A stretch of DNA of 64,000 nt from Bacillota bacterium (GTDB lineage: Bacteria > Bacillota > Negativicutes > Sporomusales > CTSoil-080), in assembly GCA_017889725.1 (NCBI GenBank), contig JAGGAE010000003.1, positions 40,245-104,244 of the forward strand. The letters are read 5' to 3'. Under the pieces are notes generated by a model. That model was not told where the DNA came from. It saw only the letters and a list, made by a program, of their open reading frames with translations, and searched no databases. The position numbers and the translations under genes were made by a program. Shown here piece by piece: positions 5,251 to 56,796 of this stretch; the first letter of the stretch is position 1; each line of letters opens with the position of its first letter.

Positions 5251-6107
5251 ATTTTATTATTATTCGGAAGGTCAAGAGTGAACCGGCCCAGTTTTCCATC
5301 CCGGAACTCATTCAATACAATGCGTCCGGCTTTTTCCACGTCAATAACACCACCGCTACGCATACAGCCCCGGCGCGCACCGACTAAAGCCAATAGTTCT
5401 CCCATTTCCTCCGGCAAAGGTTGTTCTAGGCAATACCTTTCAGTCAGCCGCTCAGGATACTTCATCGCCAAAAGTGCCAATAATTTTAGTATTACGTCTT
5501 CAAGTACAACCGCCTCATCACTGATAGCCCCTGTAGCAGCTAACCGAAAAGCCGCTTCTTGATCTTCTAATTTCGGCCATAGCACGCCTGGGGTATCTAA
5601 TAATTCAAGGTTTTTACTGATCTTAATCCATTGCTGGCCCCGAGTAACCCCTGGTTTGTCGCCCGTTCGTACCGTTGCCGCTCCTAACAACCGGTTAATT
5701 AGCGACGATTTGCCGACATTTGGAATGCCTAAAATCATAGCCCTTACTGCCCGTGGTCGTATCCCTTTAGCAGCTAGTTTCTCCATTTTTCCACTGGCTG
5801 CCGAAGCCACTCTGGTGATAAGTTCTTTAGACCCCTTACCACTTAAAGCTTCCAATACCACAACAGGACGATTAATCGTACGGTAGTAGGCCAGCCACTG
5901 ATCCGTACCGAAAGGCTCAGCTAAATCCGTCTTATTTAGCGCTACAACACGTGGTTTTTCCCCTACAATATCATCAATGATAGGGTTAGCACTGCTGCTT
6001 GGAATTCTGGCATCTAAAAGTTCAACCACTACATCAACCAGCTTTAATTGTTCACGAATCATCCGGTGGGCTTTCGCCATATGACCGGGAAACCAATGAA
6101 TGGTCAT
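5244..6107 (-). CDS. rbgA: Ribosome biogenesis GTPase A (YlqF/RbgA)
   Basis: MTIHWFPGHMAKAHRMIREQLKLVDVVVELLDARIPSSSANP matches the RbgA N-terminus from ATG 6107. The ORF track begins 3 codons earlier. Confidence 0.9.
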   Translation of the reverse strand: MTIHWFPGHMAKAHRMIREQLKLVDVVVELLDARIPSSSANPIIDDIVGEKPRVVALNKTDLAEPFGTDQWLAYYRTINRPVVVLEALSGKGSKELITRVASAASGKMEKLAAKGIRPRAVRAMILGIPNVGKSSLINRLLGAATVRTGDKPGVTRGQQWIKISKNLELLDTPGVLWPKLEDQEAAFRLAATGAISDEAVVLEDVILKLLALLAMKYPERLTERYCLEQPLPEEMGELLALVGARRGCMRSGGVIDVEKAGRIVLNEFRDGKLGRFTLDLPNNNKMT

Positions 6108-9985: not shown

Positions 9986-11329
9986 TTATTGAAAGAATGG
10001 AAGCTTAAAGCCGCCCTTCTTTTTGTTGTTCTGCATCCCCTGGAAACGTTTCATCATTTTTTTAGCGTCATCAAATTGTTTTAGCAGACGGTTTACATCC
10101 TGTACTTTGGTGCCACTGCCTACCGCAATACGTTTACGGCGACTACCATTAAGAATTCCGGGGTCACGCCGTTCTTTCGACGTCATGGATTGAATAATAG
10201 CTTCCACACGCTTTAGTTGTTTTTCATCGATTTGTACGTCTTTGAGCTGCTTAAGATTACCCATACCAGGTAACATGCCCAAAACCTGTTCTAAAGGACC
10301 CAGTTTACGCACTTGCTGTAGTTGTTCCAAGAAATCATCCAGTGTAAATTCTTCTTTCCGGAGTTTCTTTTCCAACGCCATGGCTTTTTCGGCATCAAAA
10401 GCTGTTTCCGCCTTTTCTATCAGACTGAGAACATCACCCATGCCTAAAATTCGGGAAGCCATCCGGTCGGGATAAAATGGCTCTAGTGCCTCCAGCTTTT
10501 CCCCCTGACCCGTAAACTTTATCGGGCATCCGGTAACCGCCTTGACCGACAGCGCAGCCCCGCCGCGCGCATCACCGTCAAGCTTAGTAAGAATAACCCC
10601 ATCCAGCCCTAAATCTTTATTAAAGGCTTCGGCAACGGTTACCGCATCCTGACCGGTCATAGCATCAACGACCAGCAGAATTTCATGCGGCTTTACTTGC
10701 TGTTTAACCGCTTTAAGTTCGCCCATGAGTTCCTCATTAATATGCAACCGACCGGCAGTATCGATGATAACCACATCACGAGCATAGCTCTCGGCATATT
10801 CCATGGCTTTTTTCGCAATAACAACCGGGTTTTCTTTATCACCCAGCGAAAACACCGGCAGTTCCAGGTTTTGCCCTAGTACTTCTAGCTGCTTAATAGC
10901 CGCCGGACGATAAACATCGGCCGCAACCAATAAAGGCCGCTTGTTTTGCTTTACCAGGTAACGGGCAAGTTTTCCTGCCGTGGTAGTCTTCCCGGCCCCT
11001 TGCAAACCAACCAACATAATAACGGTTGGTGGCCGGGAAGAAATAGTAATACGGCTTTGGGTCCCACCCATTAGCGCCGTTAATTCATCACTTACAATTT
11101 TTATCACATGCTGCGCCGGTGAAAGACTTTCTAGCACTTCCTGACCGACGGCCCGTTCTTTGACCTTAGCAATAAAATCCTTGGCAACCTTAAAGTTTAC
11201 GTCAGCCTCTAATAGCGCTACCCGAACTTCCCGCATTGCCTCATTTACGTCAGCCTCGGATAGTTTACCACGGCCTCGCAATTTCTTAAATGTATTTTGC
11301 AGTTTATCGGCTAAGCCTTCAAAAACCAC
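9986..11329 (-). CDS. ffh: Signal recognition particle protein Ffh
   Basis: 447 aa with the GTPase motifs GLQGAGKTTT, DTAGR and TKLDGD plus a Met-rich M domain. GTG start with GAGGAGGA upstream. Confidence 0.97.
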   Translation of the reverse strand: MVFEGLADKLQNTFKKLRGRGKLSEADVNEAMREVRVALLEADVNFKVAKDFIAKVKERAVGQEVLESLSPAQHVIKIVSDELTALMGGTQSRITISSRPPTVIMLVGLQGAGKTTTAGKLARYLVKQNKRPLLVAADVYRPAAIKQLEVLGQNLELPVFSLGDKENPVVIAKKAMEYAESYARDVVIIDTAGRLHINEELMGELKAVKQQVKPHEILLVVDAMTGQDAVTVAEAFNKDLGLDGVILTKLDGDARGGAALSVKAVTGCPIKFTGQGEKLEALEPFYPDRMASRILGMGDVLSLIEKAETAFDAEKAMALEKKLRKEEFTLDDFLEQLQQVRKLGPLEQVLGMLPGMGNLKQLKDVQIDEKQLKRVEAIIQSMTSKERRDPGILNGSRRKRIAVGSGTKVQDVNRLLKQFDDAKKMMKRFQGMQNNKKKGGFKLPFFQ

Positions 11330-17171: not shown

Positions 17172-18335
17172 CTAACCAAGCCATTTAGTGATTCTTTCGG
17201 CTGCTATTTTCAGACGGTCTTCCGGCTGAACTAGGGCAATGCGGACATATCCTTCCCCGCACGCACCAAATCCGACTCCCGGAATAACAGCAACCCCGGT
17301 TTCCCGGATGAGGTCAACGACAAAGTCAAAAGATGCCTGTTTTGTCGGTACCGAGGCCCAGATATACATCGAGGCCAAAGGACTGGGCACTTTCCAGCCT
17401 GCCTTCCCAAATCCTTCTACGATAACATCTCTTCGCCGTGCATACTCGGCAGCGGTTTGTGTAACACATTCGTCCGGACCTGTTAGTGCGGCAATAGCCG
17501 CCCTCTGCACCGGATAAAAAATGCCATAGTCAAAATTGGACTTTATCCGATTTAAAAGCGCAATAACTTTCGCATTCCCAACAACAAAGCCCACGCGACA
17601 CCCAGCCATGCTATACGTTTTTGAAAGCGAATGAAATTCAACGGCTACCTCTTTAGCGCCGGGAATACTCAGGAAGCTGTCAGGCCGGTAGTTGTCAAAT
17701 ACTAATTCACTATAGGCAAAATCGTGACATACGAGAATGTTATGCCGGGTAGCAAACTCCACAACCTTAACGAAAAACTCACGGGGCGCAACCGCAGCCA
17801 GCGGATTGTTAGGATAGTTCAAAATCATAATTTTAGCCCGCTTCAAGATAGCAGGCGGTATGGCGTCCAAATCGGGTAAATAATGATTTGCAGAAGTTAA
17901 CGGCATATGATATAACTCAGCATTAGCCGCCATAGGGCCGGCACTGAAAATTGGATAACCAGGGTCAGGCACTAAAACCACATCCCCTGGATTTACAAGA
18001 CATAAAGCAATATGGGCCAGACCATCCTGCGACCCTAAAAGTGAATGTATCTCTGTCTCGGGGTCGAGAACTACGCCAAATTTGCGGTCATACCACTCAG
18101 ATATCGCAATAAGTAGATCCGATACGCCTTTAGTAAAGGTGTATCCGTAATTCGCCGGATCACCAACTGCATTCTTCAAGACTTCAATAATATGTGGCGC
18201 AGGTGCAAGATCAGGACTACCAATGCTTAGATTAATTATATCTGTGCCATTTGCTGCCGTCTGTTTGCAAAGCAAATCAACCTGGCTGAAAATAGCAGCC
18301 GACATTCCTGACATTCTGGTTGCTTCCGTAAGCAT
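17172..18335 (-). CDS. PLP-dependent aminotransferase, class I/II (DapL/AspC-like)
   Basis: 387 aa from ATG 18335 (GAGGTGA SD). Motifs include IGSPDLAPAP, NPGDVVLVPDPGYP, NYPNNP and SLSKTYSMAGCRVGF (PLP lysine). Confidence 0.85.
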   Translation of the reverse strand: MLTEATRMSGMSAAIFSQVDLLCKQTAANGTDIINLSIGSPDLAPAPHIIEVLKNAVGDPANYGYTFTKGVSDLLIAISEWYDRKFGVVLDPETEIHSLLGSQDGLAHIALCLVNPGDVVLVPDPGYPIFSAGPMAANAELYHMPLTSANHYLPDLDAIPPAILKRAKIMILNYPNNPLAAVAPREFFVKVVEFATRHNILVCHDFAYSELVFDNYRPDSFLSIPGAKEVAVEFHSLSKTYSMAGCRVGFVVGNAKVIALLNRIKSNFDYGIFYPVQRAAIAALTGPDECVTQTAAEYARRRDVIVEGFGKAGWKVPSPLASMYIWASVPTKQASFDFVVDLIRETGVAVIPGVGFGACGEGYVRIALVQPEDRLKIAAERITKWLG

Positions 18336-18585
18336 TATTTCACCTCTCGACACAATCTATTAGTAAAATCATAAAAACAATGTCAACTTGAGTTCATTAT
18401 AACACCTTCATAGTGATATTTCACCTGTTATAATGTTTAGATATTATTGCTCAATATCGCTATTATTTCGTTAAATACTTGCATTTTCAAGGATTATCAT
18501 AAAGGTTTCCGTCTTTCTTTAATAAAAAGTTTATATTTTCAGATATAAGAGATGATTAAACTCAACTTTCAATTTTTACTGTTTT

Positions 18586-18632
18586 TTGACAAAAAGAAGC
18601 CAGGCAAACGCAAGGTCGCTTACCTGACTGGC
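18586..18632 (-). terminator. Intrinsic terminator after the Stn-like operon
   Basis: Minus-strand RNA reads GCCAGUCAGG...UUUGCCUGGC (imperfect stem) followed by UUCUUUUUGUC, 18 nt after the stop codon. Confidence 0.55.
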
Positions 18633-18649
18633 ATGGTAACTTGATTAAA

Positions 18650-21600
18650 CTAAATTCTAGGACTGTTTTTTACAAACCAGTGTTCTACTGTATCAGCATA
18701 GTCAGCGGCAACACAAGGTTTACCAGGTGCCCCCGGCTCGGAAAGCTTAGCACCAGTGCCAACTGCTTTGCAAATAGCTTCAAGAACGTCAGTATTTGTT
18801 TTGCCGCTTTGACTTGCAAAGGCGGCCGTAACCTTTTGCACACGTTTTTCACTATTGGTGTAGGTCCCGTCGGATTCGGCGAAAGTTGCTAACGGCAATA
18901 CCACATCCGCCAGTTTTGCTGTTTCCGTCAATAGTACATCGGCCACAAGGGTAAATGCACTTTGACTGAGCATTTTCGACATATTTTCTACGCCGCAGCC
19001 TACAGGATCTTCTCCGAATATCGCGTAAACGTCTTTACCCTCACCGCAGCAAACCGGACCAAAGCCTAAATCAATAGCCCCTTGGGTATTGGCCCTGCCG
19101 TGCATTACCAGAAGCGACTTATCGGTTTTTCCGGCTATGATCGCCAAACCGGCCACCGCTTCCGCTTCATGAGCACTTACTTCGCCGCCAATCACAAATA
19201 CAGGTTTGTCGGCCTCTTTCAGAAGCTCAACCAGACGCGTCCTCTGCGCATGTTTGTCGCTTTGTCCGCAATCACAAGCTTTGGTTTCTTTACCGGCTAA
19301 AGCATCGGCACAGGTATTGACAAAGCACGTGATATTTTCCAAATCGATAGATATCACTTCGCTTGCATAGCGAGTCAGTTTGCTCGGAGCATTATCGACG
19401 ATAACGAGTTTAGCACCTCGTTCGGCAGCCTGTTTAACCAGTAGTGCCGCTACCGGGTTAACAGTTTTGATATCAAAGCCGATACAGAGAATTAAATCCG
19501 CCGCCTTAATATCTTCGTAGGTAGCAGTGTTGGCTTTTCCACCAAGCGCCCTAGCCACACCAAAGGCAGCTGTTCTAAGTCCGAAACTGGACGGTCTAAC
19601 TCCAAGTCCTTTTTCAGCCAAGTCTTTAACTAAAGCCAGCTCTTCATTGGTTAAACGCTGGGATGCATACACACCGGCCTTGCCCTTCGCCAGCTTCTGT
19701 CCGATAACCTGATACGCTTCATCCCATGAAGCCGCTACAAGTGCACCGTTCTTTTTAACCATCGGCTGAGTCAGGCGGTCGGCAGAATTAATAATGTCGT
19801 TGCCGAATTTACCGCGAACGCAAAGATTACCGTCATTAACCCCTTTGCCAACTTCAGCCGTAGTGCGGACATACTGTCCAGCAACCGTATTGAGTTCGAT
19901 CGAGCAGCCTGTACCGCAGTAATTGCAAATAGTTGATGTGGTTTTTTCCGCAAAAGGTCCCGGTTTGGGCAGTGTTACCTTTTCAACCAAAGCACCTACC
20001 GGACAACTGGAAACGCACTGACCGCAAGATTCACACCTTGATTCTTCAGCAAATTCCTGACCAAAGGAAGGAGCCACAATCGTATTGTACCCGCGGGATA
20101 TAAAGCCTAACGCTCCGGCGCCTTGCAGTTCATGGCAAATGCGTACACAACGTCCGCACATAATACATTTGTTTTGGTCACGAGTGATAAACGGATGCGT
20201 TTCATCCAGCGGATGTTTGCTAATAGCTCCTGCCAACCGGTTTTGTTCTACATCATACTTAGTAGAGAATTCCCGGAGTTTACATTCTTTTACATCCTGG
20301 CAACCACAGGAAAGACAGCGCTGTGCTTCGCTCCGTGCCTGTTCTTCGCTAAAGCCAAGTTCAACTTCTTTGAAGTTACGGCTACGTTCCGATTTATTCA
20401 GCATCGGCATTTTTTCTTTAGCCAGTTTGGGGAACTTTTCAAACATGGATTTATCAATTTCATGGAGTTTTCCGCGAACATGGTTATACTCCGTTGCCGG
20501 CTTCTCCATTTTCACACCACGAACATATTGATCAATTGCCAAAGCCGCCTGCCGCCCTGCCGCAATGGCCCCAATGGCCGTCTTCGGGCCGGTAACAACA
20601 TCGCCGCCGGCAAATACTCCATCAATATTGGTGATGAGCAAATCAGGATTAACGGCAATCCGGTTTCTTTCCACCTTGAGTGAGAAATCAGCATCCACAA
20701 ACGATAAATCCTGAGTTTGGCCAATCGCTGAAATAAGATAATCGCACTCTTCAACAAACTCCGAACCTGCAACGCGCACCGGCGATCTCCGACCTGACGC
20801 ATCCATTTCGCCAAGTTCCATCCGGTAAAAAGTTACTGCCACTTTACCATTTTTATCAGCTACTTGGTCAGAAGCAATAAGTTCGGCAATATGAACGCCT
20901 TCAAATTCGGCTTCTTCAATTTCCAGATCATGGGCCGGCATTTCCGCTTTCGTACGACGGTAAGCCATTTCAACCGAGCTTGCACCAAGGCGAAGTGCGG
21001 TGCGTGCAGCATCAACGGCGGTATTGCCGCCACCAATGACGATGACTTTCTTACCGGTCATATCACCAGCTTGACCCAAGCCGACTTTTCCTAAGAATTC
21101 TACGCCCGATAAAATGTTGGCAATTCCATCTTCGCCGTCACAACCGAGCTTAGTACCAAGCTGAGAGCCAACACCAAGGAATATTGCATCGTAGCCGTCT
21201 TTCTTTAAGCTAGCGTACGTAACATCCTGGCCGAAAGTCGTATTGTAACGAATTTCAACTCCTAACGCTTTAATTAAATCGATTTCTTTATCCAAAACAT
21301 CCTTCGGTAACCGGTATTCCGGAATACCATAACGCAGCATACCGCCGCCACAAGGCCATTTTTCAAAAATGGTGATGGCATGGCCTTCGCGTGCCAAATA
21401 ATTAGCGCAGGAAAGTCCCGCCGGACCAGCCCCGATAACAGCAACTTTTTTACCGGAAGCAGATTTACGTTCAGGCAGATAGGGATTATCGCTGTTAAGA
21501 TCGTAATCAGAAGCAAAACGTTTGAGGTAGTCAATGCCTACCCGGCCATCCACCAAATTCCGGCGGCATTCGTCTTCGCAAGGACGGGTACATACCCGAC

Positions 21601-22030
21601 CACAGACAAGCGGAAGAGGATTTCTTTCTTTAATAAGTTTAACTGCATCCTGGTATTGACCATTGGCAATATGGGCGATATACCCCTGCACATCAATACC
21701 TGCTGGACAAGTCATGCTACAAGGAGCCGTACAGTCGCCATAATGCTGGGAAACCAGTAGTTCCAGACAAGTTTTGCGAGACTGGTTAACCGCATCCGTT
21801 TCGGTACGAATTACCATACCATTGGCAACTTCTGTGGCACAGGCCAGCATGTTGCCGCGAGCGCCCTCTACTTCCACCCGGCACAAGAGACACGAACCAA
21901 ACGGCTTTAACCGGTCATCATGACACAGCGTAGGTATTGCAATACTTTGTTCCCGAGCCACATCCAGAATGGTTTGCCCCGGAGTGGCCTTTACCTCGAT
22001 TCCGTTTATTGTCAGGTTGATTTTTTCCAT
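18650..22030 (-). CDS. Large Fe-S flavoprotein fusion (StnC-like): 2Fe-2S ferredoxin + GltD/NfnB-like NADPH:FAD module + 4Fe-4S domains + degenerate MopB domain
   Basis: 1126 aa. Domains in order: N-terminal CHDDRLKPFGSCLLCRVE; GltD-type CTAPCSMTCPAG; VAVIGAGPAGLSCA and VIVIGGGNTAVD; CIMCGRCVRIC and CESCGQCVSSCP; then ICNYCGTGCS (MopB 4Fe-4S). Confidence 0.85.
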   Translation of the reverse strand: MEKINLTINGIEVKATPGQTILDVAREQSIAIPTLCHDDRLKPFGSCLLCRVEVEGARGNMLACATEVANGMVIRTETDAVNQSRKTCLELLVSQHYGDCTAPCSMTCPAGIDVQGYIAHIANGQYQDAVKLIKERNPLPLVCGRVCTRPCEDECRRNLVDGRVGIDYLKRFASDYDLNSDNPYLPERKSASGKKVAVIGAGPAGLSCANYLAREGHAITIFEKWPCGGGMLRYGIPEYRLPKDVLDKEIDLIKALGVEIRYNTTFGQDVTYASLKKDGYDAIFLGVGSQLGTKLGCDGEDGIANILSGVEFLGKVGLGQAGDMTGKKVIVIGGGNTAVDAARTALRLGASSVEMAYRRTKAEMPAHDLEIEEAEFEGVHIAELIASDQVADKNGKVAVTFYRMELGEMDASGRRSPVRVAGSEFVEECDYLISAIGQTQDLSFVDADFSLKVERNRIAVNPDLLITNIDGVFAGGDVVTGPKTAIGAIAAGRQAALAIDQYVRGVKMEKPATEYNHVRGKLHEIDKSMFEKFPKLAKEKMPMLNKSERSRNFKEVELGFSEEQARSEAQRCLSCGCQDVKECKLREFSTKYDVEQNRLAGAISKHPLDETHPFITRDQNKCIMCGRCVRICHELQGAGALGFISRGYNTIVAPSFGQEFAEESRCESCGQCVSSCPVGALVEKVTLPKPGPFAEKTTSTICNYCGTGCSIELNTVAGQYVRTTAEVGKGVNDGNLCVRGKFGNDIINSADRLTQPMVKKNGALVAASWDEAYQVIGQKLAKGKAGVYASQRLTNEELALVKDLAEKGLGVRPSSFGLRTAAFGVARALGGKANTATYEDIKAADLILCIGFDIKTVNPVAALLVKQAAERGAKLVIVDNAPSKLTRYASEVISIDLENITCFVNTCADALAGKETKACDCGQSDKHAQRTRLVELLKEADKPVFVIGGEVSAHEAEAVAGLAIIAGKTDKSLLVMHGRANTQGAIDLGFGPVCCGEGKDVYAIFGEDPVGCGVENMSKMLSQSAFTLVADVLLTETAKLADVVLPLATFAESDGTYTNSEKRVQKVTAAFASQSGKTNTDVLEAICKAVGTGAKLSEPGAPGKPCVAADYADTVEHWFVKNSPRI

Positions 22031-22056
22031 TTTAGATGATCACCTCTCCTCAACCA

Positions 22057-23835
22057 CTAATCAATTTCAATGGCGCTGAAACGACATTTTTCTTTACAAG
22101 CACCGCACTTTGTACACAGGCTACTGTCAATCTTGTGTGCCTTTTTCGGTTCGCCACTGATGGCTTTTACCGGGCATACTCGGCTACAAGCAGTACAGCC
22201 TATACATTTATCTTCTAGTATTACATATTTGATTAATGGCCGACACTGTTTTGCCGGACATTTCTTATCTTTAATATGAGCTTCATACTCATGACGGAAA
22301 TACTTAAGGGTGGTGAGTACTGGATTCGGTGCCGTTTGACCAAGACCGCACAACGCATTCCGGCGAATCTGGTCGGACAACTCTTCCAATAATTCAATAT
22401 CGCCTTCTCGGCCTTCGCCGGTTGTGAGGCGGGTAAGAATCTCGAGCATGCGATTTGTACCAATCTTACAGAAAGTACATTTTCCGCAAGACTCGGATTG
22501 TGTAAAGGATAAGAAGTAACGGGCTATATCCACCATACAGTTATCCTCATCCATAACAATCATACCGCCGGACCCCATAATCGCACCGGTCTGATTAACA
22601 GAATCATAGTCAACTATGGTGTCTAAAAGGTGCGCCGGAATACAGCCTCCGGATGGACCGCCCATTTGTACCGCTTTAAAAGGTTTACCGGAAGAAGTAC
22701 CTCCCCCGATTTCGTAGATAATGTCACGGAGCGCTATGCCCATCGGAACTTCCACTAAACCTCCGCGCGCAATTTTTCCTGCCAAAGCAAAAACCTTAGT
22801 TCCTTTACTTTTCTCAGTGCCATACTTATTATAACTGCCAGCACCGTTGAGAATAATGTACGCGACATTGGCAAAGGTTTCAACGTTGTTGATATTGGTA
22901 GGTTTGCCAAATAAGCCCGACTGTGCCGGGAATGGCGGACGGATTCTAGGCATACCCCGTTTTCCTTCAATAGAAGAAATCAGAGCAGTTTCTTCACCGC
23001 ATACGAATGCACCCGCGCCCTCTTTAATCTTGATCTTGAAATTAAAGTTTGTGCCGAGAACATTCTTGCCCAAAAGACCTCTCTCTTCCGCAGCTTTTAT
23101 AGCAATTTTTAGCCTTTTTATAGCAATAGGATATTCAGCACGCGCATAGATATAGGCTTCATCTGCACCTATAGCGTAGCCGGCGATCATCATGCCTTCC
23201 AATACCGCATGAGGGTCACCTTCCAGCACGCTGCGGTCCATGAATGCGCCCGGGTCGCCCTCGTCGGCATTACAAATAATATATTTTTTACTGCCCTTTG
23301 AAGCGTTTGCAAATTTCCACTTCATTCCGGTAGGGAAACCTGCGCCACCACGTCCACGCAGACCCGATGCCAGTACTTCTTCTATTACTTGTTCCGGAGT
23401 CATAGTTTTTATTGCTTTTCCAATAGCCTTATACGCATCCATCGCTATTGCTTCATCTAATGACTCAGGATTGATCTTACCGCAACGCCGAAGAACAATG
23501 CGTTCTTGTTTATCAAAGAAGCTGTCTTCGCTAGTTTTTAAGTCGCATCCTTGAACTACCCATTCGGTGATAGGCTGACCGTTTCCAATGTGTTCTGCGA
23601 AAAGACGATCCACTTTATCGGGAGTTACATTACCGTAAATATAACTCTTGCCGTCCGGATTTACAATTTCCACCAGAACTTCCTTATAGCACATACCCAT
23701 GCAACCGGTTTCATCAACAGAAACCGTAACCGGAGTCGTTGCCTGTTTCGCTTTGATGGCTTCCATAACCTTTAACCCACCAGCAGCGATACCACAACTG
23801 CCTAAGCCAACAATGACCTTATATTGTTTTTCCAT
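22057..23835 (-). CDS. NuoF/HydB-like NAD(H)-binding FMN Fe-S subunit (StnB-like)
   Basis: 592 aa. It has a thioredoxin-like N-terminus (GSCGIAAGG...CMGMC), GRGGAGFPTGMKW, a SLBB/4Fe-4S part ESCGKCTFC, and two C-terminal ferredoxin motifs (CIGCTACSRVCP and CTKCGACKEKC). Confidence 0.9.
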   Translation of the reverse strand: MEKQYKVIVGLGSCGIAAGGLKVMEAIKAKQATTPVTVSVDETGCMGMCYKEVLVEIVNPDGKSYIYGNVTPDKVDRLFAEHIGNGQPITEWVVQGCDLKTSEDSFFDKQERIVLRRCGKINPESLDEAIAMDAYKAIGKAIKTMTPEQVIEEVLASGLRGRGGAGFPTGMKWKFANASKGSKKYIICNADEGDPGAFMDRSVLEGDPHAVLEGMMIAGYAIGADEAYIYARAEYPIAIKRLKIAIKAAEERGLLGKNVLGTNFNFKIKIKEGAGAFVCGEETALISSIEGKRGMPRIRPPFPAQSGLFGKPTNINNVETFANVAYIILNGAGSYNKYGTEKSKGTKVFALAGKIARGGLVEVPMGIALRDIIYEIGGGTSSGKPFKAVQMGGPSGGCIPAHLLDTIVDYDSVNQTGAIMGSGGMIVMDEDNCMVDIARYFLSFTQSESCGKCTFCKIGTNRMLEILTRLTTGEGREGDIELLEELSDQIRRNALCGLGQTAPNPVLTTLKYFRHEYEAHIKDKKCPAKQCRPLIKYVILEDKCIGCTACSRVCPVKAISGEPKKAHKIDSSLCTKCGACKEKCRFSAIEID

Positions 23836-23837
23836 GC

Positions 23838-24242
23838 TTACGCCCTCCCTGTCTCGTAGTAATCCCGTATAATTTTACGAGCAGAATCAGGGGTTAAGCG
23901 ACCATAGGCTTCTTCGTCAATCATAATAACCGGAGCTAAACTGCAACAACCAAGACAAGCCACAGTTTCCAGCGTGAATTTTCCGTCTTTTGTGGTGCCG
24001 CCAAACTCCACTTTAAGTTCGTCCGCTAATGCATCGGCAACTTTTTCAGCTCCATTAACATGGCAGGCAGTACCGAAACATATTTTAATAACATGCTCAC
24101 CAGTCGGTTCTAGACGAAATTGAGAATAAAAAGTCGCTACTCCCATGACTTGCGTCGGAAACATTCCGGTTTTTTCACACATTTTGTCTAAAACATCTTT
24201 GGGCAAATAACCGTACGCGGCTTGAATCTCTTGGTTATGCAA
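23838..24242 (-). CDS. NuoE/HydC-like [2Fe-2S] subunit (StnA-like), short N-terminus
   Basis: 134 aa with CFGTACHVNG and CLGCCSLAP. The only canonical in-frame start is TTG 24242, with no obvious SD and an in-frame stop 13 codons upstream. Confidence 0.8.
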   Translation of the reverse strand: MHNQEIQAAYGYLPKDVLDKMCEKTGMFPTQVMGVATFYSQFRLEPTGEHVIKICFGTACHVNGAEKVADALADELKVEFGGTTKDGKFTLETVACLGCCSLAPVIMIDEEAYGRLTPDSARKIIRDYYETGRA

Positions 24243-24310
24243 ATCAAACCGCAGATAAGGAAAACAGTCGCAGACATCCTACGACTATTTTCTTAATATC
24301 CATCTATTCT

Positions 24311-24338
24311 AATATACCTTATTCTAAAAATATGTCAA
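24311..24338 (-). promoter_or_regulatory. Candidate promoter of the Stn-like operon
   Basis: Minus strand reads TTGACA (24333-24338)-N16-TATATT (24311-24316). Confidence 0.45.
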
Positions 24339-24439
24339 CCGCATTAGAAGTTATAATGTAATAGATAAAAACTATTTACTTATTCTAATATTAATAGATT
24401 GTTATTTTATTTTAATAAAAACCAACAAAACTATTCCTT

Positions 24440-25726
24440 TTACTCATTTTCGCATAGTTTACCCCCCCGCCTCTGGGCTTCATGGTACACTTTTTCCTCA
24501 TCTATCGTTGTCAAACGCCTGTTATCAAGCAATACTTTTCCCGCAACAAGTACCGTTTCCACATCGGCGGCATTAGCCGCATATGTTAGCAACGAAGCAC
24601 AATTATGGCGTGGGTACCAATGCGGAGCCTCCATGGATACTATAGTAATATCTGCCTGAAAACCAGGTACAAGCGTACCTGTTACTTTGTCCAACCCAAC
24701 AGTGGCAGCTCCCGCCGAAGTCGCCATTTTCAGGGCCTCCTTAGCCGGAAGAGCAAGCGGATCAAGAGTATTAACCTTATGCAAGAGGGCCGCCAGCCTC
24801 ATTTCTTCTAACATATCGAGATTATTGTTGCTCGAAGCGCCATCCGTTCCAAGACCAACAACCAACCCTGCTTCTAGCATAGCCGGAACCGGAGCTACCC
24901 CACTCGCCAGCTTCATATTGCTGCCAGGATTATGGGCTACCCGGACGCCCTTTTCCTTCATAATAATAATATCTTCAGGCGATACATGAACACAGTGAGC
25001 CGCCAATACCCCATGATCCAGCAAGCCCACTTCATTCATTAGAGCAATAGGCGATTTTCCATACTGTTTAACGCAATCAGTCACTTCTCCAGCCGTTTCG
25101 GATAAATGAATATGGATTTCGGCTTCTAGTTTTTCGGCCAACTGACACACCGTTTTTAAATAATCCGGCGGACAGGTATACGGCGCATGTGGACCAAGCA
25201 TTACCGTTATCCGGCCCTCCGCCTTATTGTGCCACTCTGTAAAAAGCGTCTTGCTTTCGGCAAGAGCCAATTCGGCATTAGGACCAATCCCGATCATCCC
25301 GCGGCAAAGCACCGCGCGGATTCCGCTTTGCTCCACCGCCATAGCAACTTGATCCATAAACGAATACATATCGGCAAACGTTGTAGTTCCCGATTTTATC
25401 ATTTCGGCTATGGCCAATTGAGTTCCCCAGTATACGTCCTCCGCGGTAAGCCTTTCTTCCGCTGGCCAGATTTTATTCTGGAGCCAATCCATTAACGCCA
25501 TATCGTCGGCGTAACTGCGAAACAGTGTCATTGCCGCATGCGTATGGGTGTTTACAAAGCCTGGAGTAATAAGCTTATTCGTACAATCGATTACCCGGTC
25601 CGCCTGCCAATCCGATGGCACAGAGCCTACCTTGTCAATCAAAGTATCGACAATGGCAATATCTGCTTGACGGATATTGCCGTCCGCCCCAAAAACCTCG
25701 CCATTTTTTAATAATATATTAGCCAC
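24440..25726 (-). CDS. mtaD: 5-methylthioadenosine/S-adenosylhomocysteine deaminase (amidohydrolase)
   Basis: 428 aa from GTG 25726 (AAGGAGG 8 nt upstream). MANILLKNGEVF..., the metal motif FVNTHTHAAMT, and HCVH...DGASSNN. It overlaps the upstream aldolase gene by 8 nt. Confidence 0.85.
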   Translation of the reverse strand: MANILLKNGEVFGADGNIRQADIAIVDTLIDKVGSVPSDWQADRVIDCTNKLITPGFVNTHTHAAMTLFRSYADDMALMDWLQNKIWPAEERLTAEDVYWGTQLAIAEMIKSGTTTFADMYSFMDQVAMAVEQSGIRAVLCRGMIGIGPNAELALAESKTLFTEWHNKAEGRITVMLGPHAPYTCPPDYLKTVCQLAEKLEAEIHIHLSETAGEVTDCVKQYGKSPIALMNEVGLLDHGVLAAHCVHVSPEDIIIMKEKGVRVAHNPGSNMKLASGVAPVPAMLEAGLVVGLGTDGASSNNNLDMLEEMRLAALLHKVNTLDPLALPAKEALKMATSAGAATVGLDKVTGTLVPGFQADITIVSMEAPHWYPRHNCASLLTYAANAADVETVLVAGKVLLDNRRLTTIDEEKVYHEAQRRGGKLCENE

Positions 25727-41064: not shown

Positions 41065-44000
41065 TTATTTTTTAAAACGAAACTCCTCAATATCTTGTTG
41101 AGCAATTTGCCATGCATCATAATCTTCTACCGCCTTTTTTGTATCCAGTGTGCCTAAAACAGGAGACGCTAATAAACCACTCTGCTCAAAAGGTGCAATA
41201 CTCAAGCGAATCCCATACCTAGTGTCTACTCTTCTCCCGCAAATTCGTTGTACGCGTTCAATAAAATTCTGCAGTTCTTGCTCATTTTGTTCTCCACAAC
41301 ATGCTTTTAAGTCACTAACACATTGACAAAGATCATGTAAGCAATCCAATCTGTGTGAATGTATCAAACAGGAAAATGCCTGCATGCCCTGCTCAGATTG
41401 ACTAGAAAGCTGCCATACAATCGGACGCTTTCTAAACTGCCTGATATGTCGCTTAAAGAAACGTTTTAGTATCCATTCTTGTATGGAAATGCCGACAATC
41501 GCTTCAAATTCAGCTTCAAACAGTATTATATTGCACCAAGTAGCAATCATCCGTCTTACCAAACCAACTAACCCATTACCTTTACACCCATCTGTCAAAG
41601 GTATGAAAGCCCTATCCTCCATCACTGACAAAATTACACAAGTTAACGCATCTTGGGCCATCTGACTCTCACTGTTTCGATCTCGCCAACCATGCTTCGC
41701 AATCCCCTCTTGAACCCATTGGCAAACAACACTGGGCGGCAACTTCACCGCATGAGTCATTTTGTCTAGCTTGCTTACAATAGTTGCCCCTATATTATCT
41801 TGTCCGTCTTCATATATTTCTTTCAAGCGACTCTTATATTCATTTTCTTGTTCACTTAATCCTTCCATGTCATGCCTATACAGGCTGGGTATCTTACCCA
41901 TTTCCTCGGTTATCTCTCGAACCTCCTTCTCCGACAAACAAAACAATTCTTGTATTTTCAAATCAATAGCATCCCTTGCTAATACATACTTTAAAGCCAT
42001 GCTCCAGACACTAGTCTTTCTCTCAGATACCTTGTCACTAAACGGAAAAAAGCTCTGTGGGTTACGCGGATTGCAGCGGTCGGTAATTTCCAGCTCATAA
42101 AGTTTCCCACTAACCTCAGCCGCACATTTTGCCCACTCCACAAGCGTGGTCATATCATTTACATTTACTTCAGGCACAGGCAGTCTCTTTACATCAATAG
42201 GTTGAAAATTTACCGTCGGATTAAAAGCATTAAGCAGCCATTGGTATATTTTCGAATTGAGCAAACTCAATAAAAACCAGGTATTCTCCGACTCATGGGG
42301 AAAAATGCAACTTGCCGCCATATCTGTCATATGTTCCGCATCAAGAAGCTTAGCACAAAAACATTTACTGCTAATAAGTCCGTATACAATTCCCGGACGC
42401 AGCCAATACTTGACATTCGGTAGTTGGGCCGAATAATGCTGTTTATAATATGCGCGGGCAAAATCATTCCATAGAATCAGGTAGGAAGAATTTCTCTTAT
42501 AGCGGTATCCACTAACTTCTTTCTCATAAGACATCCACCGGCTGGTATTCCAGCGTTCCTTTTCCGGTAATTCCCACCACAGGCGCACAAATCTTTTATT
42601 ATCCGAAGTTTTCATGCCCAAAACAATATCTGCATACTCACTCATCGTTTTGCTCTTTGCAAGCATAGTCCTTACCCCGGAACCCAACCAATATATTATC
42701 GGACTGCCTTTTGATCGTTCTTGGGACTTTTGGCTGTATATATACACACAGGAGGAATCTAAGCCATCATTATACCTTGAGATAGTAGCCAGCAATCCCT
42801 TTTCTTTGCATGGCACGCCCGTTAATTTTATATAAACCCCCAGTTCATTGCCAGTATCCTTTCCCAAAACAAACATAGCCGTATCCACCATCGCTGCAAA
42901 AGCGCCCAACCCCAAATGTCCTAACGTACAGATCGTCCAATTTGCCAGTACATGCTGCCGAAAATTCCGGTAACTATTAATAAATAGGAAAGTTTGAGGA
43001 GTAACCATAGCCACATACTCCTTAGCTAACTCTAGGCATCGCAAAACAAACGCTGTATAAAGATTTCCGGCACCGACAGCATAATTATTTCGCAAATAAT
43101 CCCTCAACACTAGAGGATAATCTCTCTTATCCATATAGGGTGGATTGGTTGTTACCACATCATACTGTTGAACAAGCAATAGAGATAATGGATCCTTTTG
43201 TTCCGAACGCAGAAGCGAGCCTAACTTCACGGCCTCAGGTTCTACACTAACTGTCGGAGCAGCCACAACATGAAATGATAACGCAGTCAGGCTTTGGACG
43301 GATAAGGATGGAACCACCTCTTTGGCCCGTAGCCAGAGGACAGTACGGCAGACCTGTATCGCCTGGTGGTCAATATCAATGCCGAATAAATTCGCATTTA
43401 AAATCGAAATGCAAGCTTCTTTATCACTATAACCACCTTCTTCTCTGTACATAGAAAGCAACAAGTCAAATGAACCTAGCAAGAAATTACCGCACCCACA
43501 CGAAGGATCAAGCACAGTAATTTGATTCACCGGTTTACTTTCTTTCGAAAGCTGGGGTTGCCTTTGAACATAATATTTCATATTAGAAGTTAACGCAGTT
43601 TCAGGATGCATCCGTGACCATAGTTTACCAAGGGAATTTTCCAAGAGATACGCTACCATATATTGTTCAGTATAAATTTGAGTAACTATCCCAATTTCAT
43701 CGTCCGTGTATTTATCCGACCGACAGGCTCGCCGCCTTTCACTGATTGCTTTGCGTTCCTTGTCGTGCCAGAAATGATAAAGCCATCCTAGCGAATCAGG
43801 AAAACTAAGACTGAATTTGCTTTCAGGCTCATCCAATATAAGCCAGGCTGCATTAGCATGGTCTTTATTTAATACCAAACTGACACCCGTCTCGATAAGC
43901 GGAGCTAATTCGGATAACTCAATATCTATTTTCCTTGCCCGCGCAACACATTCTACCGCCAGAATAAAAGCACATTGCCAACTTCTTTTTTTGTCCCCTA

Positions 44001-44067
44001 TAGCCTGTGAAACCACTCGGCGCAGTCTATCCGCAACATCAGCCAGTTGCCTCCGGTAATCTTTCAT
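41065..44067 (-). CDS. Solitary PglX/BREX-type (MmeI-like, gamma-class) N6-adenine DNA methyltransferase
   Basis: About 1000 aa from ATG 44067 (GAGGT 7 nt upstream; the ORF track extends to 44127). Motif I VLDPSCGCGNFLL and motif IV TTNPPY. PglX-like blocks TQIYTEQYMVAYLLENSLGKLW and RKRPIVWQLSS. Hand-counted 60-nt samples give about 40% G+C versus 45-55% in neighbours. Confidence 0.75.
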   Translation of the reverse strand: MKDYRRQLADVADRLRRVVSQAIGDKKRSWQCAFILAVECVARARKIDIELSELAPLIETGVSLVLNKDHANAAWLILDEPESKFSLSFPDSLGWLYHFWHDKERKAISERRRACRSDKYTDDEIGIVTQIYTEQYMVAYLLENSLGKLWSRMHPETALTSNMKYYVQRQPQLSKESKPVNQITVLDPSCGCGNFLLGSFDLLLSMYREEGGYSDKEACISILNANLFGIDIDHQAIQVCRTVLWLRAKEVVPSLSVQSLTALSFHVVAAPTVSVEPEAVKLGSLLRSEQKDPLSLLLVQQYDVVTTNPPYMDKRDYPLVLRDYLRNNYAVGAGNLYTAFVLRCLELAKEYVAMVTPQTFLFINSYRNFRQHVLANWTICTLGHLGLGAFAAMVDTAMFVLGKDTGNELGVYIKLTGVPCKEKGLLATISRYNDGLDSSCVYIYSQKSQERSKGSPIIYWLGSGVRTMLAKSKTMSEYADIVLGMKTSDNKRFVRLWWELPEKERWNTSRWMSYEKEVSGYRYKRNSSYLILWNDFARAYYKQHYSAQLPNVKYWLRPGIVYGLISSKCFCAKLLDAEHMTDMAASCIFPHESENTWFLLSLLNSKIYQWLLNAFNPTVNFQPIDVKRLPVPEVNVNDMTTLVEWAKCAAEVSGKLYELEITDRCNPRNPQSFFPFSDKVSERKTSVWSMALKYVLARDAIDLKIQELFCLSEKEVREITEEMGKIPSLYRHDMEGLSEQENEYKSRLKEIYEDGQDNIGATIVSKLDKMTHAVKLPPSVVCQWVQEGIAKHGWRDRNSESQMAQDALTCVILSVMEDRAFIPLTDGCKGNGLVGLVRRMIATWCNIILFEAEFEAIVGISIQEWILKRFFKRHIRQFRKRPIVWQLSSQSEQGMQAFSCLIHSHRLDCLHDLCQCVSDLKACCGEQNEQELQNFIERVQRICGRRVDTRYGIRLSIAPFEQSGLLASPVLGTLDTKKAVEDYDAWQIAQQDIEEFRFKK

Positions 44068-44216
44068 AGCTTTAACCTCAGTTTGAAAATATTTAAACCA
44101 ATAATTCGCTTTATTCTTTGTAAACACCTACCATTATTTACATTTTATGTAATATTTATTTTCTTACAAGGCATGATTTTTCATCTCATCGCAAACACTA
44201 GACTCAGGAGGTAACT

Positions 44217-45587
44217 ATGTCCACTGGCTATCAAAAGATAAAACCGCACAAACTCGTTATCCCTTCAACAATAACTCCCAAAACTACAAAAAAGAAATAT
44301 GACGCGATAGTAGTTGGTGCTGGGCCTGCCGGTTCTACAGCCGCCTATTTTATGGCAAAAGAAGGGATGAACGTTCTACTTTTAGAGCGAGGACCTTATC
44401 CTGGTGCCAAAAACTGTGGCGGAGCCAGTATTATTGCAGAAGCTACACATAAATTATTTCCGAACTTCTGGGATGAAATGGATTGCGAACGCCTGGTAAC
44501 CAGTCAAAGCTACTGGTGGCTTGACGAAACTTCAGCCATAACAGCAGGATTTCGCAGTATGCGGTTGGCGGCAGCTCCTTTTAACAGATTTACAGTCAAA
44601 AGACCGATATTCTATGCCTGGCTGGCGCAAAAAGCTGTGACTGAAGGAGCTACGCTCTGCCTTAACCATCATGTCTCTCATATTCTTTGGGAAGGCAGAC
44701 AGGCTTATGGCGTTGCCCTTAGCCCCCCTCAGGACGATAATGAGCTTTTGGCTGATATAATTATTGCAGCGGACGGCGCCAATTCTCTGCTTACGGAACG
44801 AAGCGGCCTTACACCAGCAGTCTCCCCCAATCACTTATCCCTATATGTAAAAGAAACAATTGCCCTTTCTTCAGACAGCATCGAAGAACGATTCAACCTA
44901 AAACCTGGCCATGGTGCACTAATCGGCCTCATTGGATATCCCACTGCAGGCTTTAATGGTACCGCCTCAATTCATACGTTTAAAGACAGTATTAGCATTA
45001 ATATCGGCATGACAATAACCAATTACGTTCAAGCCGGGCTGCCCCCCTTTTCCTTGTTGGCTCGCCTTAAACGCCACCCGGTAATTGATACACTCATACG
45101 TGGCGGAATCACAACCGAATACGGTAGTGCCACAATTCCCGAAGGAGGTTATACCGCTATCCCCAAACTTATACACCCCGGCGTGTTAGTAGTCGGTGAT
45201 GCCGCTTCCCTTGTCAATGGAACACATGGTTTTAACCTAGCCATGTGGTCGGGATACTTCGCCGCTCAAACAGCCATTAACGCAAAAATAAGTGGAGACT
45301 TTTCAATAAAAAGTCTCCACTTATATCGCCAGTTACTTGATAAAAGCTTTATACTCCAAAACATGAAACACAATGCCAAGGCTGCTTCTTTTGAACGTGA
45401 TGTTCCATATTTTTTTAGTCTGTACAGTCACATTGCTAATGAAGCCGCCTTTGAAATAACTAAAGTTTATACTATGCCTATAAAAACAAAACGTAAATTA
45501 GTTTGGAAAAAAATCATCGGTTTACAGCCGATAACTCGGATTCTAAGAGATATGTGGAAAGGAATAAAAGTGTTATGGGGCAACTAA
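44217..45587 (+). CDS. fixC: FixC-like FAD-dependent oxidoreductase (ETF-quinone oxidoreductase family)
   Basis: 456 aa with YDAIVVGAGPAGSTAAYFMAKEGMNVLLLERGPYPGAKNCGG. The SD is CAGGAGGTAA. It is followed by an overlapping fixX. Confidence 0.8.
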   Translation: MSTGYQKIKPHKLVIPSTITPKTTKKKYDAIVVGAGPAGSTAAYFMAKEGMNVLLLERGPYPGAKNCGGASIIAEATHKLFPNFWDEMDCERLVTSQSYWWLDETSAITAGFRSMRLAAAPFNRFTVKRPIFYAWLAQKAVTEGATLCLNHHVSHILWEGRQAYGVALSPPQDDNELLADIIIAADGANSLLTERSGLTPAVSPNHLSLYVKETIALSSDSIEERFNLKPGHGALIGLIGYPTAGFNGTASIHTFKDSISINIGMTITNYVQAGLPPFSLLARLKRHPVIDTLIRGGITTEYGSATIPEGGYTAIPKLIHPGVLVVGDAASLVNGTHGFNLAMWSGYFAAQTAINAKISGDFSIKSLHLYRQLLDKSFILQNMKHNAKAASFERDVPYFFSLYSHIANEAAFEITKVYTMPIKTKRKLVWKKIIGLQPITRILRDMWKGIKVLWGN

Positions 45588-53443: not shown

Positions 53444-54008
53444 TCATACATAGCCTAGAGTAAGACAGCCAAAAGCATTGTGAGCTTTTGGCTGTTCCAT
53501 CATCATATTATCGAGTTGAAATATATCCTCGATATTGCTAGAGATGATCAGATTCCGGACGGTCCAGAAGAAACTCGCAATAGAAATTTTTATACGGCTC
53601 CAGATAAGGGAATTGATTCCATTAAGCCCAAGACGGTTTTGTGAATTTGTGAGCATTTTCAACCATAGCTTGTACCACGCTTTACTGCTATCAAGCCAGA
53701 TTTCGGCTACCCGTTGGAACGAACCGGTATTAGGCGCGTCTAATACCTTGCTGGTAAAAAACCGGTTTACTTCTGGACAAGCAGCAATTTCCGGAGCCAA
53801 CATATTCAAGAACCATTCGCCCCTTGCTTCCTGAAAATACAATTAACCAGCAGTAGTTCGGTTCATCTTCAATAGTAAGTTGACTGCCTTTAAAATCGTG
53901 TTCCCAGAAAATCGGCATAAATACAAACACGATAGGATGATAGCCGTCACGGGTTCCCTGCCAACGAGGGTTACGGCCATGCTCGCTTGGCGGCTGATTG
54001 GTAATCAA
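53444..54008 (-). pseudogene. Disrupted gene: two overlapping ORFs in different frames (EthD-like dimeric alpha/beta-barrel is a guess)
   Basis: ORF A (54008-53730, TTG start, AAGGAGG SD) reads plausibly to ...EDEPNYCWLI. ORF B (53842-53444) continues with YFQEARGEWFLNMLAPEIAACPEVNRFF...FQRVAEIWLDSSKAW. Both turn junk-like outside the overlap. Confidence 0.35.
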
Positions 54009-54107
54009 AACGCCTCCTTATATGTATAACCAGTAATGTGTCAAAAGTTTACTGCGCTTAGCATTGGCCATGTACCGTAAACCAACCGGGCAATAACTTC
54101 TATGTTC

Positions 54108-54539: not shown

Positions 54540-54608
54540 TGAAATAACTCCTCCTCTTCTATTTGAGCTATGTGCCCTAACCCCATTATTGATGAGGTTA
54601 TTATTTTT

Positions 54609-54707
54609 TCAATTTATGCTGCTCACTATGTAAAGCAGATGAGACTTTGATTTCGGAATATCAACAAGCTCCAAATTTCTCGGACCATGATACTGTATAG
54701 CCCTCAT
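54609..54707 (-). pseudogene. 32-codon stub of a zinc-type (MDR) alcohol dehydrogenase N-terminus
   Basis: GGAAGGAGG lies 5 nt upstream of the ATG at 54707. The translation is MRAIQYHGPRNLELVDIPKSKSHLLYIVSSIN*. The first about 19 residues look like a typical MDR-ADH N-terminus and the rest of the gene is absent. Confidence 0.5.
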
Positions 54708-54956
54708 GAAAACCTCCTTCCACAAATCACCGAGCATTAAACGGCAAATTTTAAAATTTCTGTATATTATAATATACCTTTAATTACTTATTTGGAAATA
54801 TTTTTTTGTTCTAACATCTATAATCATTTGTTACCAATTCCGATTATTGCCATCATTATGAAGAATATGATCTTTCGAAATCTACTTTAAATATGATTGT
54901 AAGAAATAAAATACCGTACTATAATATTAAAGTAGTGAACTAAACAAGGAGTATTT

Positions 54957-56792: not shown

Positions 56793-56796
56793 CCTC

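Follow-up and report, generated by a model that had tools for sequence, protein, structure and literature searches.

Closest described systems

Three-subunit transhydrogenases of the Stn/Nfn type have been characterised from Sporomusa ovata (StnABC; 8OH5 and 8OH9), Caldicellulosiruptor saccharolyticus (NfnABC; 9BOV and 9BP5; Li 2025) and Thermococcus sibiricus (Nfn-BfuABC; 9N5U and 9N5V; Xiao 2025). The S. ovata enzyme has been reported to produce NADPH from NADH and reduced ferredoxin (Kremp 2020, PMC7483475). We have analysed a stretch of 64,000 nucleotides (hereafter the window) from contig JAGGAE010000003.1 of the Bacillota metagenome-assembled genome (MAG) GCA_017889725.1, in which three consecutive genes on the minus strand encode homologs of the three subunits. 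The three genes are listed below.

23838..24242, minus strand: remnant of stnA (nfnC, NuoE/HydC-like), 134 amino acids, TTG start
22057..23835, minus strand: stnB (nfnB, NuoF/HydB-like), 592 amino acids, ATG start
18650..22030, minus strand: stnC (nfnA), 1126 amino acids, ATG start

The locus is read here as the stnABC operon of a bifurcating transhydrogenase, with a native StnA of 168 amino acids, a host from the Sporomusales group UBA7701 or near it, and a loss of 129 nucleotides at the start of stnA that is most likely an assembly artefact. We assign a probability of roughly 0.82 to this reading.

The S. ovata system exhibits the same A-B-C gene order as the window locus, the domains of each subunit follow one another in the same way, and the proteins align over their full length. 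Both systems share all Fe-S ligands, Lys170, the arginine equivalent to R239, the flavin mononucleotide (FMN) loop, the E184/D186 loop and the cysteine and histidine residues of the Zn linker. The StnC of the window differs from that of S. ovata in being 46 amino acids shorter, in identities of 47% and 34% over its two halves and in having valine instead of Cys114. The native 168-residue StnA is 10 amino acids shorter than its S. ovata counterpart and begins with a CNCCC motif. Among solved homologs, C. saccharolyticus NfnABC scores best for both C (847 bits) and A (168 bits), and it shares the architecture, the cluster ligands and the three-cysteine pattern at the N-terminus of the B subunit. 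It differs in having cysteine at the position equivalent to 114, in being an enzyme of a thermophile and in having its B-subunit N-terminal site resolved as Zn. T. sibiricus Nfn-BfuABC belongs to the same family and shares both Val114 and a short NuoE-like N-terminus (154 amino acids). It is archaeal, and its 963-residue large subunit carries a partial FdhF-like domain without one cluster, whereas the StnC of the window keeps the four cysteines of that cluster.

Two further systems are related in part. The HydABC [FeFe]-hydrogenases (T. kivui 8A6T and T. maritima 7P5H) exhibit homologous B and A/C subunits and the same FMN-based bifurcating module. However, the window locus has no H-cluster subunit, and its large subunit is a GltD-NuoG fusion that would use NADPH and not H2. 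The NfnAB/NfnSL transhydrogenases (T. maritima and P. furiosus; 4YLF and 5JCA) perform the same overall reaction, and NfnB/NfnL is homologous to the GltD-like module of StnC (E = 3e-88). Their mechanism is unrelated, where the bifurcating flavin adenine dinucleotide (FAD) lies in NfnB, whereas the FAD of Stn does not bifurcate and Lys170 takes the place of glutamate as cluster ligand (Kumar 2023, PMC10482914).

Identity of the three proteins

All PDB sequences were searched with the three proteins, domains were assigned by Pfam, and identities were counted on HMMER alignments. The top hits of all three proteins are chains of 8OH5, 9BOV and 9N5U, which are all cryogenic electron microscopy (cryo-EM) structures. 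StnC matches 9bov_A (E = 2e-253), 8oh5_C (1e-238) and 9n5u_A (2e-203), and its residues 1-1092 are colinear with 8oh5_C and 9bov_A. StnB matches 8oh5_B best (E = 7e-267, residues 6-591), followed by the chains of the other two complexes (1e-259 and 1e-251). The 134-residue StnA matches chains of the three complexes with E-values of 2e-48, 5e-43 and 2e-46. The identity to S. ovata is 66% for StnB (388/586) and 56% for StnA (72/128, aligned part only). StnC is 47% identical over its N-terminal half, which includes the GltD module (E = 2e-163), and 34% identical over its C-terminal half, or about 40% overall. Candidate StnC proteins of the Stn clusters listed by Kremp 2020 are 31-49% identical (PMC7483475); as aligned, the 47% of the N-terminal half is at the top of this range.

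Chains of hydrogenases, formate dehydrogenases and complex I rank well below the Stn/Nfn chains in the PDB search. These scores bear on the possibility that the locus encodes only part of a bifurcating hydrogenase or formate dehydrogenase, namely the module that couples NADH and ferredoxin, with the gene for the catalytic subunit lying at another place. For A and B there are indeed strong matches to HydC and HydB of bifurcating [FeFe]- and [NiFe]-hydrogenases (7t2r, 7q4v and 8a6t), and the C subunit carries both formate dehydrogenase-like and HydA-like Fe-S motifs. However, the hydrogenase and formate dehydrogenase chains score at most 257 bits against C, compared with 798-847 for Stn/Nfn, and at most 767 against B, compared with 840-890. 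The C subunit also carries a complete GltD module for FAD and NADPH, which is absent from hydrogenase and formate dehydrogenase enzymes. The H-cluster domain and PF01568 are absent while PF00384 is present, and no maturation genes occur in the 64 kb. We give this possibility next to no weight.

The sequence-only reading of this DNA had proposed an Stn-type cluster from the subunit composition, and the full-length top hits of all three proteins to the chains of 8OH5, 9BOV and 9N5U bear this out. It had also named two outcomes that would speak against this, namely best matches to hydrogenases or formate dehydrogenases and a low identity across the GltD module. The best matches are to neither enzyme, and the half with that module is 47% identical to S. 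ovata StnC. Its three open reading frames (ORFs) of 134, 592 and 1126 amino acids with gaps of 2 and 26 nucleotides are exact in their coordinates, and its statement that no H-cluster domain and no maturation genes lie nearby agrees with the absence of PF02906 and of maturation genes in the 64 kb. The description of the 1126-residue protein as a fusion of a 2Fe-2S domain, a GltD/NfnB module, 4Fe-4S motifs and a MopB-like tail agrees with the Pfam content. The term stnABC ortholog holds for membership of the Stn type and goes too far for strict orthology, with about 40% identity to S. ovata and the nearest StnC outside its own lineage in Clostridia.

StnC and position 114

The Pfam domains of StnC are, in order, PF13510 (2Fe-2S), PF14691 and PF07992 (GltD/NfnB-like), PF22117 (Nqo3-type Fer4), and PF04879 and PF00384 (MopB-like). 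PF02906 (H-cluster) and PF01568 (Mo-binding cap) are absent both in our Pfam scan and in the precomputed domain list of the identical database protein (P0001). StnC therefore exhibits, by its domain content, an N-terminal [2Fe-2S] domain, an FAD and NADPH module with two [4Fe-4S] clusters, NuoG-like [4Fe-4S] clusters and an FdhF/MopB-like domain. The HydA chains of hydrogenases match only the N-terminal Fe-S part (for example, 8a6t_A matches residues 2-101).

The ligands of one [2Fe-2S] cluster are C36/47/50/64. The ligands of six [4Fe-4S] clusters include C100/104/108, C147/151/155, C572/575/577/583, C622/625/628/632, C666/669/672/676 and C702/705/709/737. All of these ligands are cysteine in 8oh5_C, and they are invariant or nearly so across 119 homologs. 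Lys170 has been described as an unusual, strictly conserved ligand of cluster C7 in StnC (Kumar 2023, PMC10482914); in the window protein it lies in IDYLK(170)RF, and it is lysine in all 119 aligned homologs. StnC also keeps the arginine equivalent to R239 and both GxGxxG/A dinucleotide motifs with a YRR stretch. The FdhF-like domain of S. ovata StnC is catalytically inactive, holds two off-pathway clusters and is required for tetramer assembly and not for catalysis (Kumar 2023, PMC10482914). By analogy, the MopB-like tail of the window StnC would be structural (tetramerisation) and not catalytic.

Position 114 of StnC (codon 21689-21691) is valine. Cys114 of S. ovata contacts or modulates C7, and its replacement by alanine halves the activity, although the authors state that it is not strictly conserved (Kumar 2023, PMC10482914). 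Valine or isoleucine occupies this position in 119/119 of the nearest homologs that were aligned. The active enzyme of T. sibiricus also has valine at the equivalent position, whereas that of C. saccharolyticus has cysteine. Since the active T. sibiricus enzyme shares it, Val114 is a trait of a subfamily and does not exclude the protein from the Stn family.

The difference at position 114 and the overall identity of about 40% between the C subunit and the characterised S. ovata enzyme are also points in favour of a homolog with another reaction. Such a homolog could be an NADPH-dependent sulfur/polysulfide oxidoreductase similar to NsoABC of Thermococcus litoralis, or a non-bifurcating NADPH:ferredoxin or NADPH:NAD+ oxidoreductase. 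However, Kremp et al. have themselves suggested that Nso is really a transhydrogenase (PMC7483475). The three characterised members, from a Negativicute, a thermophilic relative of Clostridium and an archaeon, share one reaction despite comparable divergence. The residues tested as functionally important (K170, the arginine equivalent to R239, the ligands of the StnA cluster and the FMN/NAD site) are all conserved. We consider another reaction improbable.

StnB and its N-terminal metal site

The Pfam domains of StnB are PF01512 and PF10589, together with a C-terminal ferredoxin domain of two [4Fe-4S] clusters and an N-terminal thioredoxin-like part. [quoted passage not shown] All cysteines of the ligand motifs are shared with S. 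ovata, and the two proteins differ only at non-ligand cysteine positions. The glycine-rich FMN loop GLRGRGGAGFPTG and CNADEGDPGAF are identical to S. ovata, and the E184/D186 loop is conserved.

The N-terminal site of three cysteines exhibits the same pattern in all three solved structures. It has been modelled as [2Fe-2S] in S. ovata and resolved as Zn in C. saccharolyticus (PMC11829005) and T. sibiricus (PMC12018979). Because the same three cysteines occur in all three structures, the sequence cannot discriminate Zn from [2Fe-2S] at this site. The earlier description of the 592-residue protein as a NuoF/HydB-like FMN/NAD(H) subunit with two [4Fe-4S] clusters stands, and the extra 2Fe-2S that it had added is a pattern that binds Zn in two structures.

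StnA and its intact form

The 134-residue StnA ORF starts with TTG and has neither a Shine-Dalgarno sequence nor an ATG. It matches only positions 20-144 of the PF01257 profile, and its alignment begins at residue 42-45 of 8oh5_A and 9bov_C and at residue 23 of 9n5u_C. The [2Fe-2S] ligands C55, C60, C96 and C100 are conserved in comparison with 8oh5_A and 9bov_C, and their spacing of 5/36/4 is the same as that of C74/79/115/119 in T. sibiricus. The ORF thus retains its [2Fe-2S] domain, which is the thioredoxin-like C-terminal part, but helix 1 and the start of helix 2 are missing from the four-helix bundle at the N-terminus. The complete bundle, which is absent from the window ORF, is present in near-identical public contigs that encode a StnA of 168 amino acids. 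The N-terminal bundle of C. saccharolyticus NfnC is wedged in the cleft between NfnA and NfnB and anchors the subunit (Li 2025, PMC11829005).

Contigs with identical B and C proteins and 129 extra nucleotides were found in ENA (ERZ27260905 and ERZ27260996) and in Logan (SRR9651508). The extra segment is present in L028, L029 and L030, and both of its flanks match the window at 99.96-100% identity over 2.7-15 kb. The position and content of the missing segment are given below.

24233..24234, minus strand: deletion junction, where 129 nucleotides are missing, namely 18 nucleotides of leader with the Shine-Dalgarno sequence GGGAGGGG, the ATG and codons 1-37 of stnA

The N-terminus of the intact 168-residue StnA (in L028) reads MSNCNCCCSQGNSKYFEQLEEILKNHAGTEADLIPIL and then continues as QEIQ... 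from the point of the junction. The gene in the two closest genomes encodes 167 amino acids, with a Shine-Dalgarno sequence and ATG. In an exact-sequence look-up, the 134-residue form was on record only as NCBI MBP2644771.1 (MHNQEIQ...), and a product of 114 amino acids from an internal ATG of stnA was on record in no source looked up. The native StnA is, as judged from these sequences, the 168-residue form, and the 134-residue ORF appears as its 5'-truncated remnant. The sequence-only reading was right about the ORF and its identity as a NuoE/HydC-like 2Fe-2S protein (PF01257) and overlooked this truncation. A frameshift, in which an extra G would fuse the mini-ORF MDIKKIVVG... to the NuoE frame, was ruled out by the sister loci and the identical contigs, which show a clean deletion of 129 nucleotides.

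The intact StnA opens with the cysteine-rich MSNCNCCCSQ (L028 2492-2530), and CNCCC also occurs in the sister MAGs and in HydC of T. kivui (8a6t_C). The chains 8oh5_A, 9bov_C and 9n5u_C align only from residue 17-25 of the intact StnA, which is downstream of this motif.

Four deletions in one contig

The window was tiled with public contigs of the same population, which are L034 (1-18502), L030 (12650-27901), L031 (26521-48409), L038 (44273-54186) and L036 (51226-64000). These contigs are 99.96-100% identical to the window, with about 8 single-nucleotide polymorphisms (SNPs), no insertions and four deletions on the window side in 64 kb. The four deletions are as follows.

24234/24233: 129 nucleotides, removing the leader and 37 codons of stnA
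about 32699: 124 nucleotides, removing the end of a GT2 glycosyltransferase gene, a terminator and the Shine-Dalgarno sequence of the next gene
51010/51009: 59 nucleotides, intergenic
51226/51225: 76 nucleotides, causing a frameshift in the chaperone gene hslO

The short forms of GT2 (411 amino acids, MBP2644782.1), HslO (257 amino acids, MBP2644799.1) and StnA (134 amino acids) were found by exact-sequence look-up in a single NCBI MAG contig only (111,852 bp). Their long counterparts (426, 291 and 168 amino acids, respectively) occur in JGI/IMG and ENA, and those of GT2 and HslO also occur in Logan. An intact stnA start was also found on the Logan contig L029. A scan of JGI metagenome contigs returned zero matches for the deleted pattern and zero for the intact pattern alike. 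The records of sister MAGs carry titles of the form scaffold_N. Because the deletions are one-sided, multiple and restricted to one assembly amid an otherwise clonal background, the four of them are most likely collapsed scaffold gaps in one MAG assembly and not biology.

The 129-nucleotide deletion could also be real in a strain. In that case stnA would have no ribosome-binding site, and the protein, if translated from TTG 24242, would lack the first 37 residues of the anchoring bundle. The junction is truly within the deposited record, as the NCBI protein MBP2644771.1 was translated across it, and the deletion is clean with no artefact mark in the sequence. The complex of such a strain would lose its bifurcating transhydrogenase activity and keep only an NADPH-dependent activity of the diaphorase type. 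The published findings on both counterparts fit this consequence, where removal of the StnA [2Fe-2S] cluster kills both physiological reactions while NADPH:methyl viologen activity stays (Kumar 2023, PMC10482914), and the N-terminal domain of NfnC anchors the subunit between NfnA and NfnB (Li 2025, PMC11829005). However, four deletions with zero insertions and about 8 SNPs in 64 kb all lie in one MAG contig. Intact stnA occurs in independent assemblies (at least 2 samples in ENA, JGI/IMG, and the Logan contig with the intact start), and the other two affected genes are likewise long in Logan, ENA and JGI/IMG. A frameshift in hslO together with the loss of a terminator and of the next Shine-Dalgarno sequence would be improbable joint natural lesions in a near-clonal background. 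A real deletion is therefore judged unlikely. It is slightly less likely still that the deletion is a genuine circulating variant that yields, from a TTG within the leader that has no Shine-Dalgarno sequence, StnA without helix 1, which would make it either a natural knockout that uncouples bifurcation or a sign that this part of BfuC is dispensable.

Deletion or misassembly mediated by repeats or microhomology was also considered for the four junctions and rejected, as there are no direct repeats at the ends and hairpins lie inside only two of the four deleted segments.

Several points weigh against the reading of the locus as an operon for a bifurcating transhydrogenase with an artefactually shortened stnA. 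Overall identity between the C subunit and its S. ovata counterpart is only about 40%, and the function of the protein set is assigned by homology. Cys114 of S. ovata StnC is valine in the window protein. The two published mechanisms differ on the clusters of the bifurcation site and on whether the B subunit carries [2Fe-2S] or Zn at its N-terminus. The artefact claim is drawn from the distribution of the deletions among assemblies, and no repeat, microhomology or hairpin consistently accounts for the four junctions.

Proposed mechanism

The mechanism of the window enzyme is proposed by analogy with the characterised complexes. NADPH would sit in StnC between the paired Rossmann folds of its GltD-like module, and hydride would go to the non-bifurcating FAD. 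Single electrons would then travel through clusters C7-C3 and reach StnB at its B1 cluster and FMN. This FMN, together with the neighbouring [4Fe-4S] cluster of StnB and the StnA [2Fe-2S] cluster, would be the site of bifurcation, where two electron pairs would be split. One pair would reduce NAD+ at the FMN, and the other would pass to the two [4Fe-4S] clusters in StnB's C-terminal domain and then to ferredoxin, with the moving C-terminal domain of StnA as the gate. The reaction would be reversible and would probably run in vivo towards NADPH from NADH and reduced ferredoxin.

In the model for the S. ovata enzyme, the FMN donates to [2Fe-2S] clusters close by in StnB and StnA. NAD+ reduction and NADH release then drive the C-terminal domain of StnA outward, which hands electrons of low potential to StnB's C-terminal clusters and then to ferredoxin; neither physiological reaction is left once the StnA cluster is deleted (Kumar 2023, PMC10482914). 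The Adams and Li groups, who resolved Zn near the N-terminus of NfnB in two enzymes, have defined a minimal flavobicluster that consists of B1, the FMN and the [2Fe-2S] of the NuoE-like subunit (PMC11829005, PMC12018979).

Operon layout and neighbouring genes

The gaps are 2 nucleotides between stnA and stnB and 26 nucleotides between stnB and stnC, and strong Shine-Dalgarno sequences precede stnB (GGGAGGG) and stnC (GAGGAGAGGTGA). The A-B-C gene order is identical in the sister genomes and the near-identical public contigs. The signals around the genes are listed below.

24311..24338, minus strand: sigma-70-type promoter-like site, TTGACA-16 nt-TATATT, 11/12 match
24260..24292, minus strand: leader hairpin between the promoter and the Shine-Dalgarno sequence, with a 14-bp stem of GAAAAUAGUCGUAG and CUGCGACUGUUUUC
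18598..18629, minus strand: intrinsic-terminator-like hairpin of 13 pairs (6 G-C) followed by the T-run TCTTTTTGTC, beginning 20 nucleotides past the stnC stop

The promoter-like site has the top score of the region within 18200-24600. Its -35 and -10 blocks are kept in the CTSoil_080 and CTSoil_081 loci, which otherwise exhibit a DNA identity of about 77-79%. The candidate promoter and terminator of the sequence-only reading were both recovered here, as the 11/12 match upstream and the 13-pair hairpin downstream. The locus would thus constitute a complete promoter-to-terminator stnABC operon, which is nfnCBA in the other nomenclature.

The leader folds at -24.3 kcal/mol (z = -4.7), and 0/200 shuffled sequences are equally stable. 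Hairpins of differing sequence occur at the same place in L007 (about 5609-5647, z = -4.2) and L001 (about 5608-5654, z = -1.6). The 3' arm GC(G/A)(G/A)CUGUUUUC is conserved, with compensating changes in the 5' arm. Possible roles of the hairpin are those of an attenuator, a stability element or a protein site. Rfam gave no hit at gathering thresholds in the stn leader or in the rest of the window, which also has no tRNAs. No operator of the NADH-sensing repressor Rex was found near the operon, and matches across the window are below chance.

The neighbours of the operon are housekeeping genes, which are methionine-salvage genes upstream and genes for LL-diaminopimelate (LL-DAP) aminotransferase, PduL, SMC, FtsY, Ffh and TrmD downstream. 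Genes for hydrogenase, hydrogenase maturation, formate dehydrogenase and GltB were not found in the 64-kb window.

Taxonomic placement and origin of the genes

The Ffh of the window (9986-11329) has named best hits of 79-83% that all come from Negativicutes (Lucifera, Anaeroselena, Sporolituus, Anaerospora and Pelosinus), many of which belong to Sporomusaceae in the sense of NCBI. The two nearest genomes are CTSoil_080 and CTSoil_081, where StnC is 79-80% identical and synteny is conserved. These two genomes were classified in the Sporomusales family UBA7701 and reported, together with a third MAG, CTSoil_82, in a study of anoxic polyphenol degradation (PMC8084988). These comparisons place the host among the Negativicutes, in or near the Sporomusales group UBA7701.

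It has been reported that stn clusters occur in Firmicutes, Synergistetes and Euryarchaeota, where their distribution follows no phylogenetic trait (Kremp 2020, PMC7483475). The presence of Stn is therefore not valid as a taxonomic hint. The earlier placement near Sporomusaceae, which had used Stn as its main hint, is roughly right through Ffh and the CTSoil_080/081 genomes and not through that reasoning.

Outside its own lineage, the StnC of the window is nearest to Clostridia, with 61-63% identity to Lutispora and 51% to Sporobacter. Strict orthology to the Stn of S. ovata is unproven because these nearest relatives are clostridial. The clostridial affinity of StnC and the Negativicutes affinity of Ffh are phylogenetically discordant. 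This discordance suggests lateral transfer or differential retention of paralogs.

Other features of the window

A protein of about 1000 amino acids is encoded at 41065-44127 on the minus strand. It exhibits MmeI_Mtase, Eco57I and N6_Mtase domains and a sub-threshold match to PglX of BREX-1 (416 bits compared with a cut-off of 500), and no other BREX genes are adjacent to it. The likely identity of this protein is a type IIL/IIG restriction-modification enzyme that stands alone. The gene at 44217-45587, on the plus strand and thus opposite to nearly all others, encodes a FixC/ETF-QO-like FAD oxidoreductase and is followed by a gene for a ferredoxin-like (FixX-like) protein of 95 amino acids. 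No etfAB/fixAB genes were seen in the window. The stretch at about 54000-60000 has a guanine-plus-cytosine (GC) content of 0.34-0.39 compared with about 0.45, and includes about 1.2 kb without long ORFs. Its regulators are tandem LysR-family genes on the plus strand (54957-55835 and 55893-56792) and a MerR/GyrI-like gene (58101-58904). This stretch may be an acquired or regulatory island.

Meaning of the findings

The locus adds, by its sequence, one more member to a well-characterised and very common family of electron-bifurcating enzymes, which keep NADH, NADPH and ferredoxin in balance in anaerobes, where the homolog search returned at least 8000 candidates at E <= 1e-50. The biological novelty is small, as the family was described in 2020 and three cryo-EM structures of it have been solved. 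The entire nearest StnC subfamily has valine or isoleucine where Cys114 of S. ovata was probed. The short deletions of the deposited MAG contig silently truncate or frameshift stnA, the GT2 gene and hslO, so that claims at the level of genes, such as a short NuoE or pseudogenes, should be checked against other assemblies or reads.

Degradation of flavonoids and phloroglucinol has been reported for the sister MAGs (PMC8084988). The Negativicute lineage may have taken the stn cluster laterally from Clostridia, which would supply NADPH for the NADPH-dependent steps of this degradation. For this uncultured Sporomusales-like group, which has been implicated in anoxic polyphenol degradation, the locus extends the known metabolic outline by a module for redox balance.

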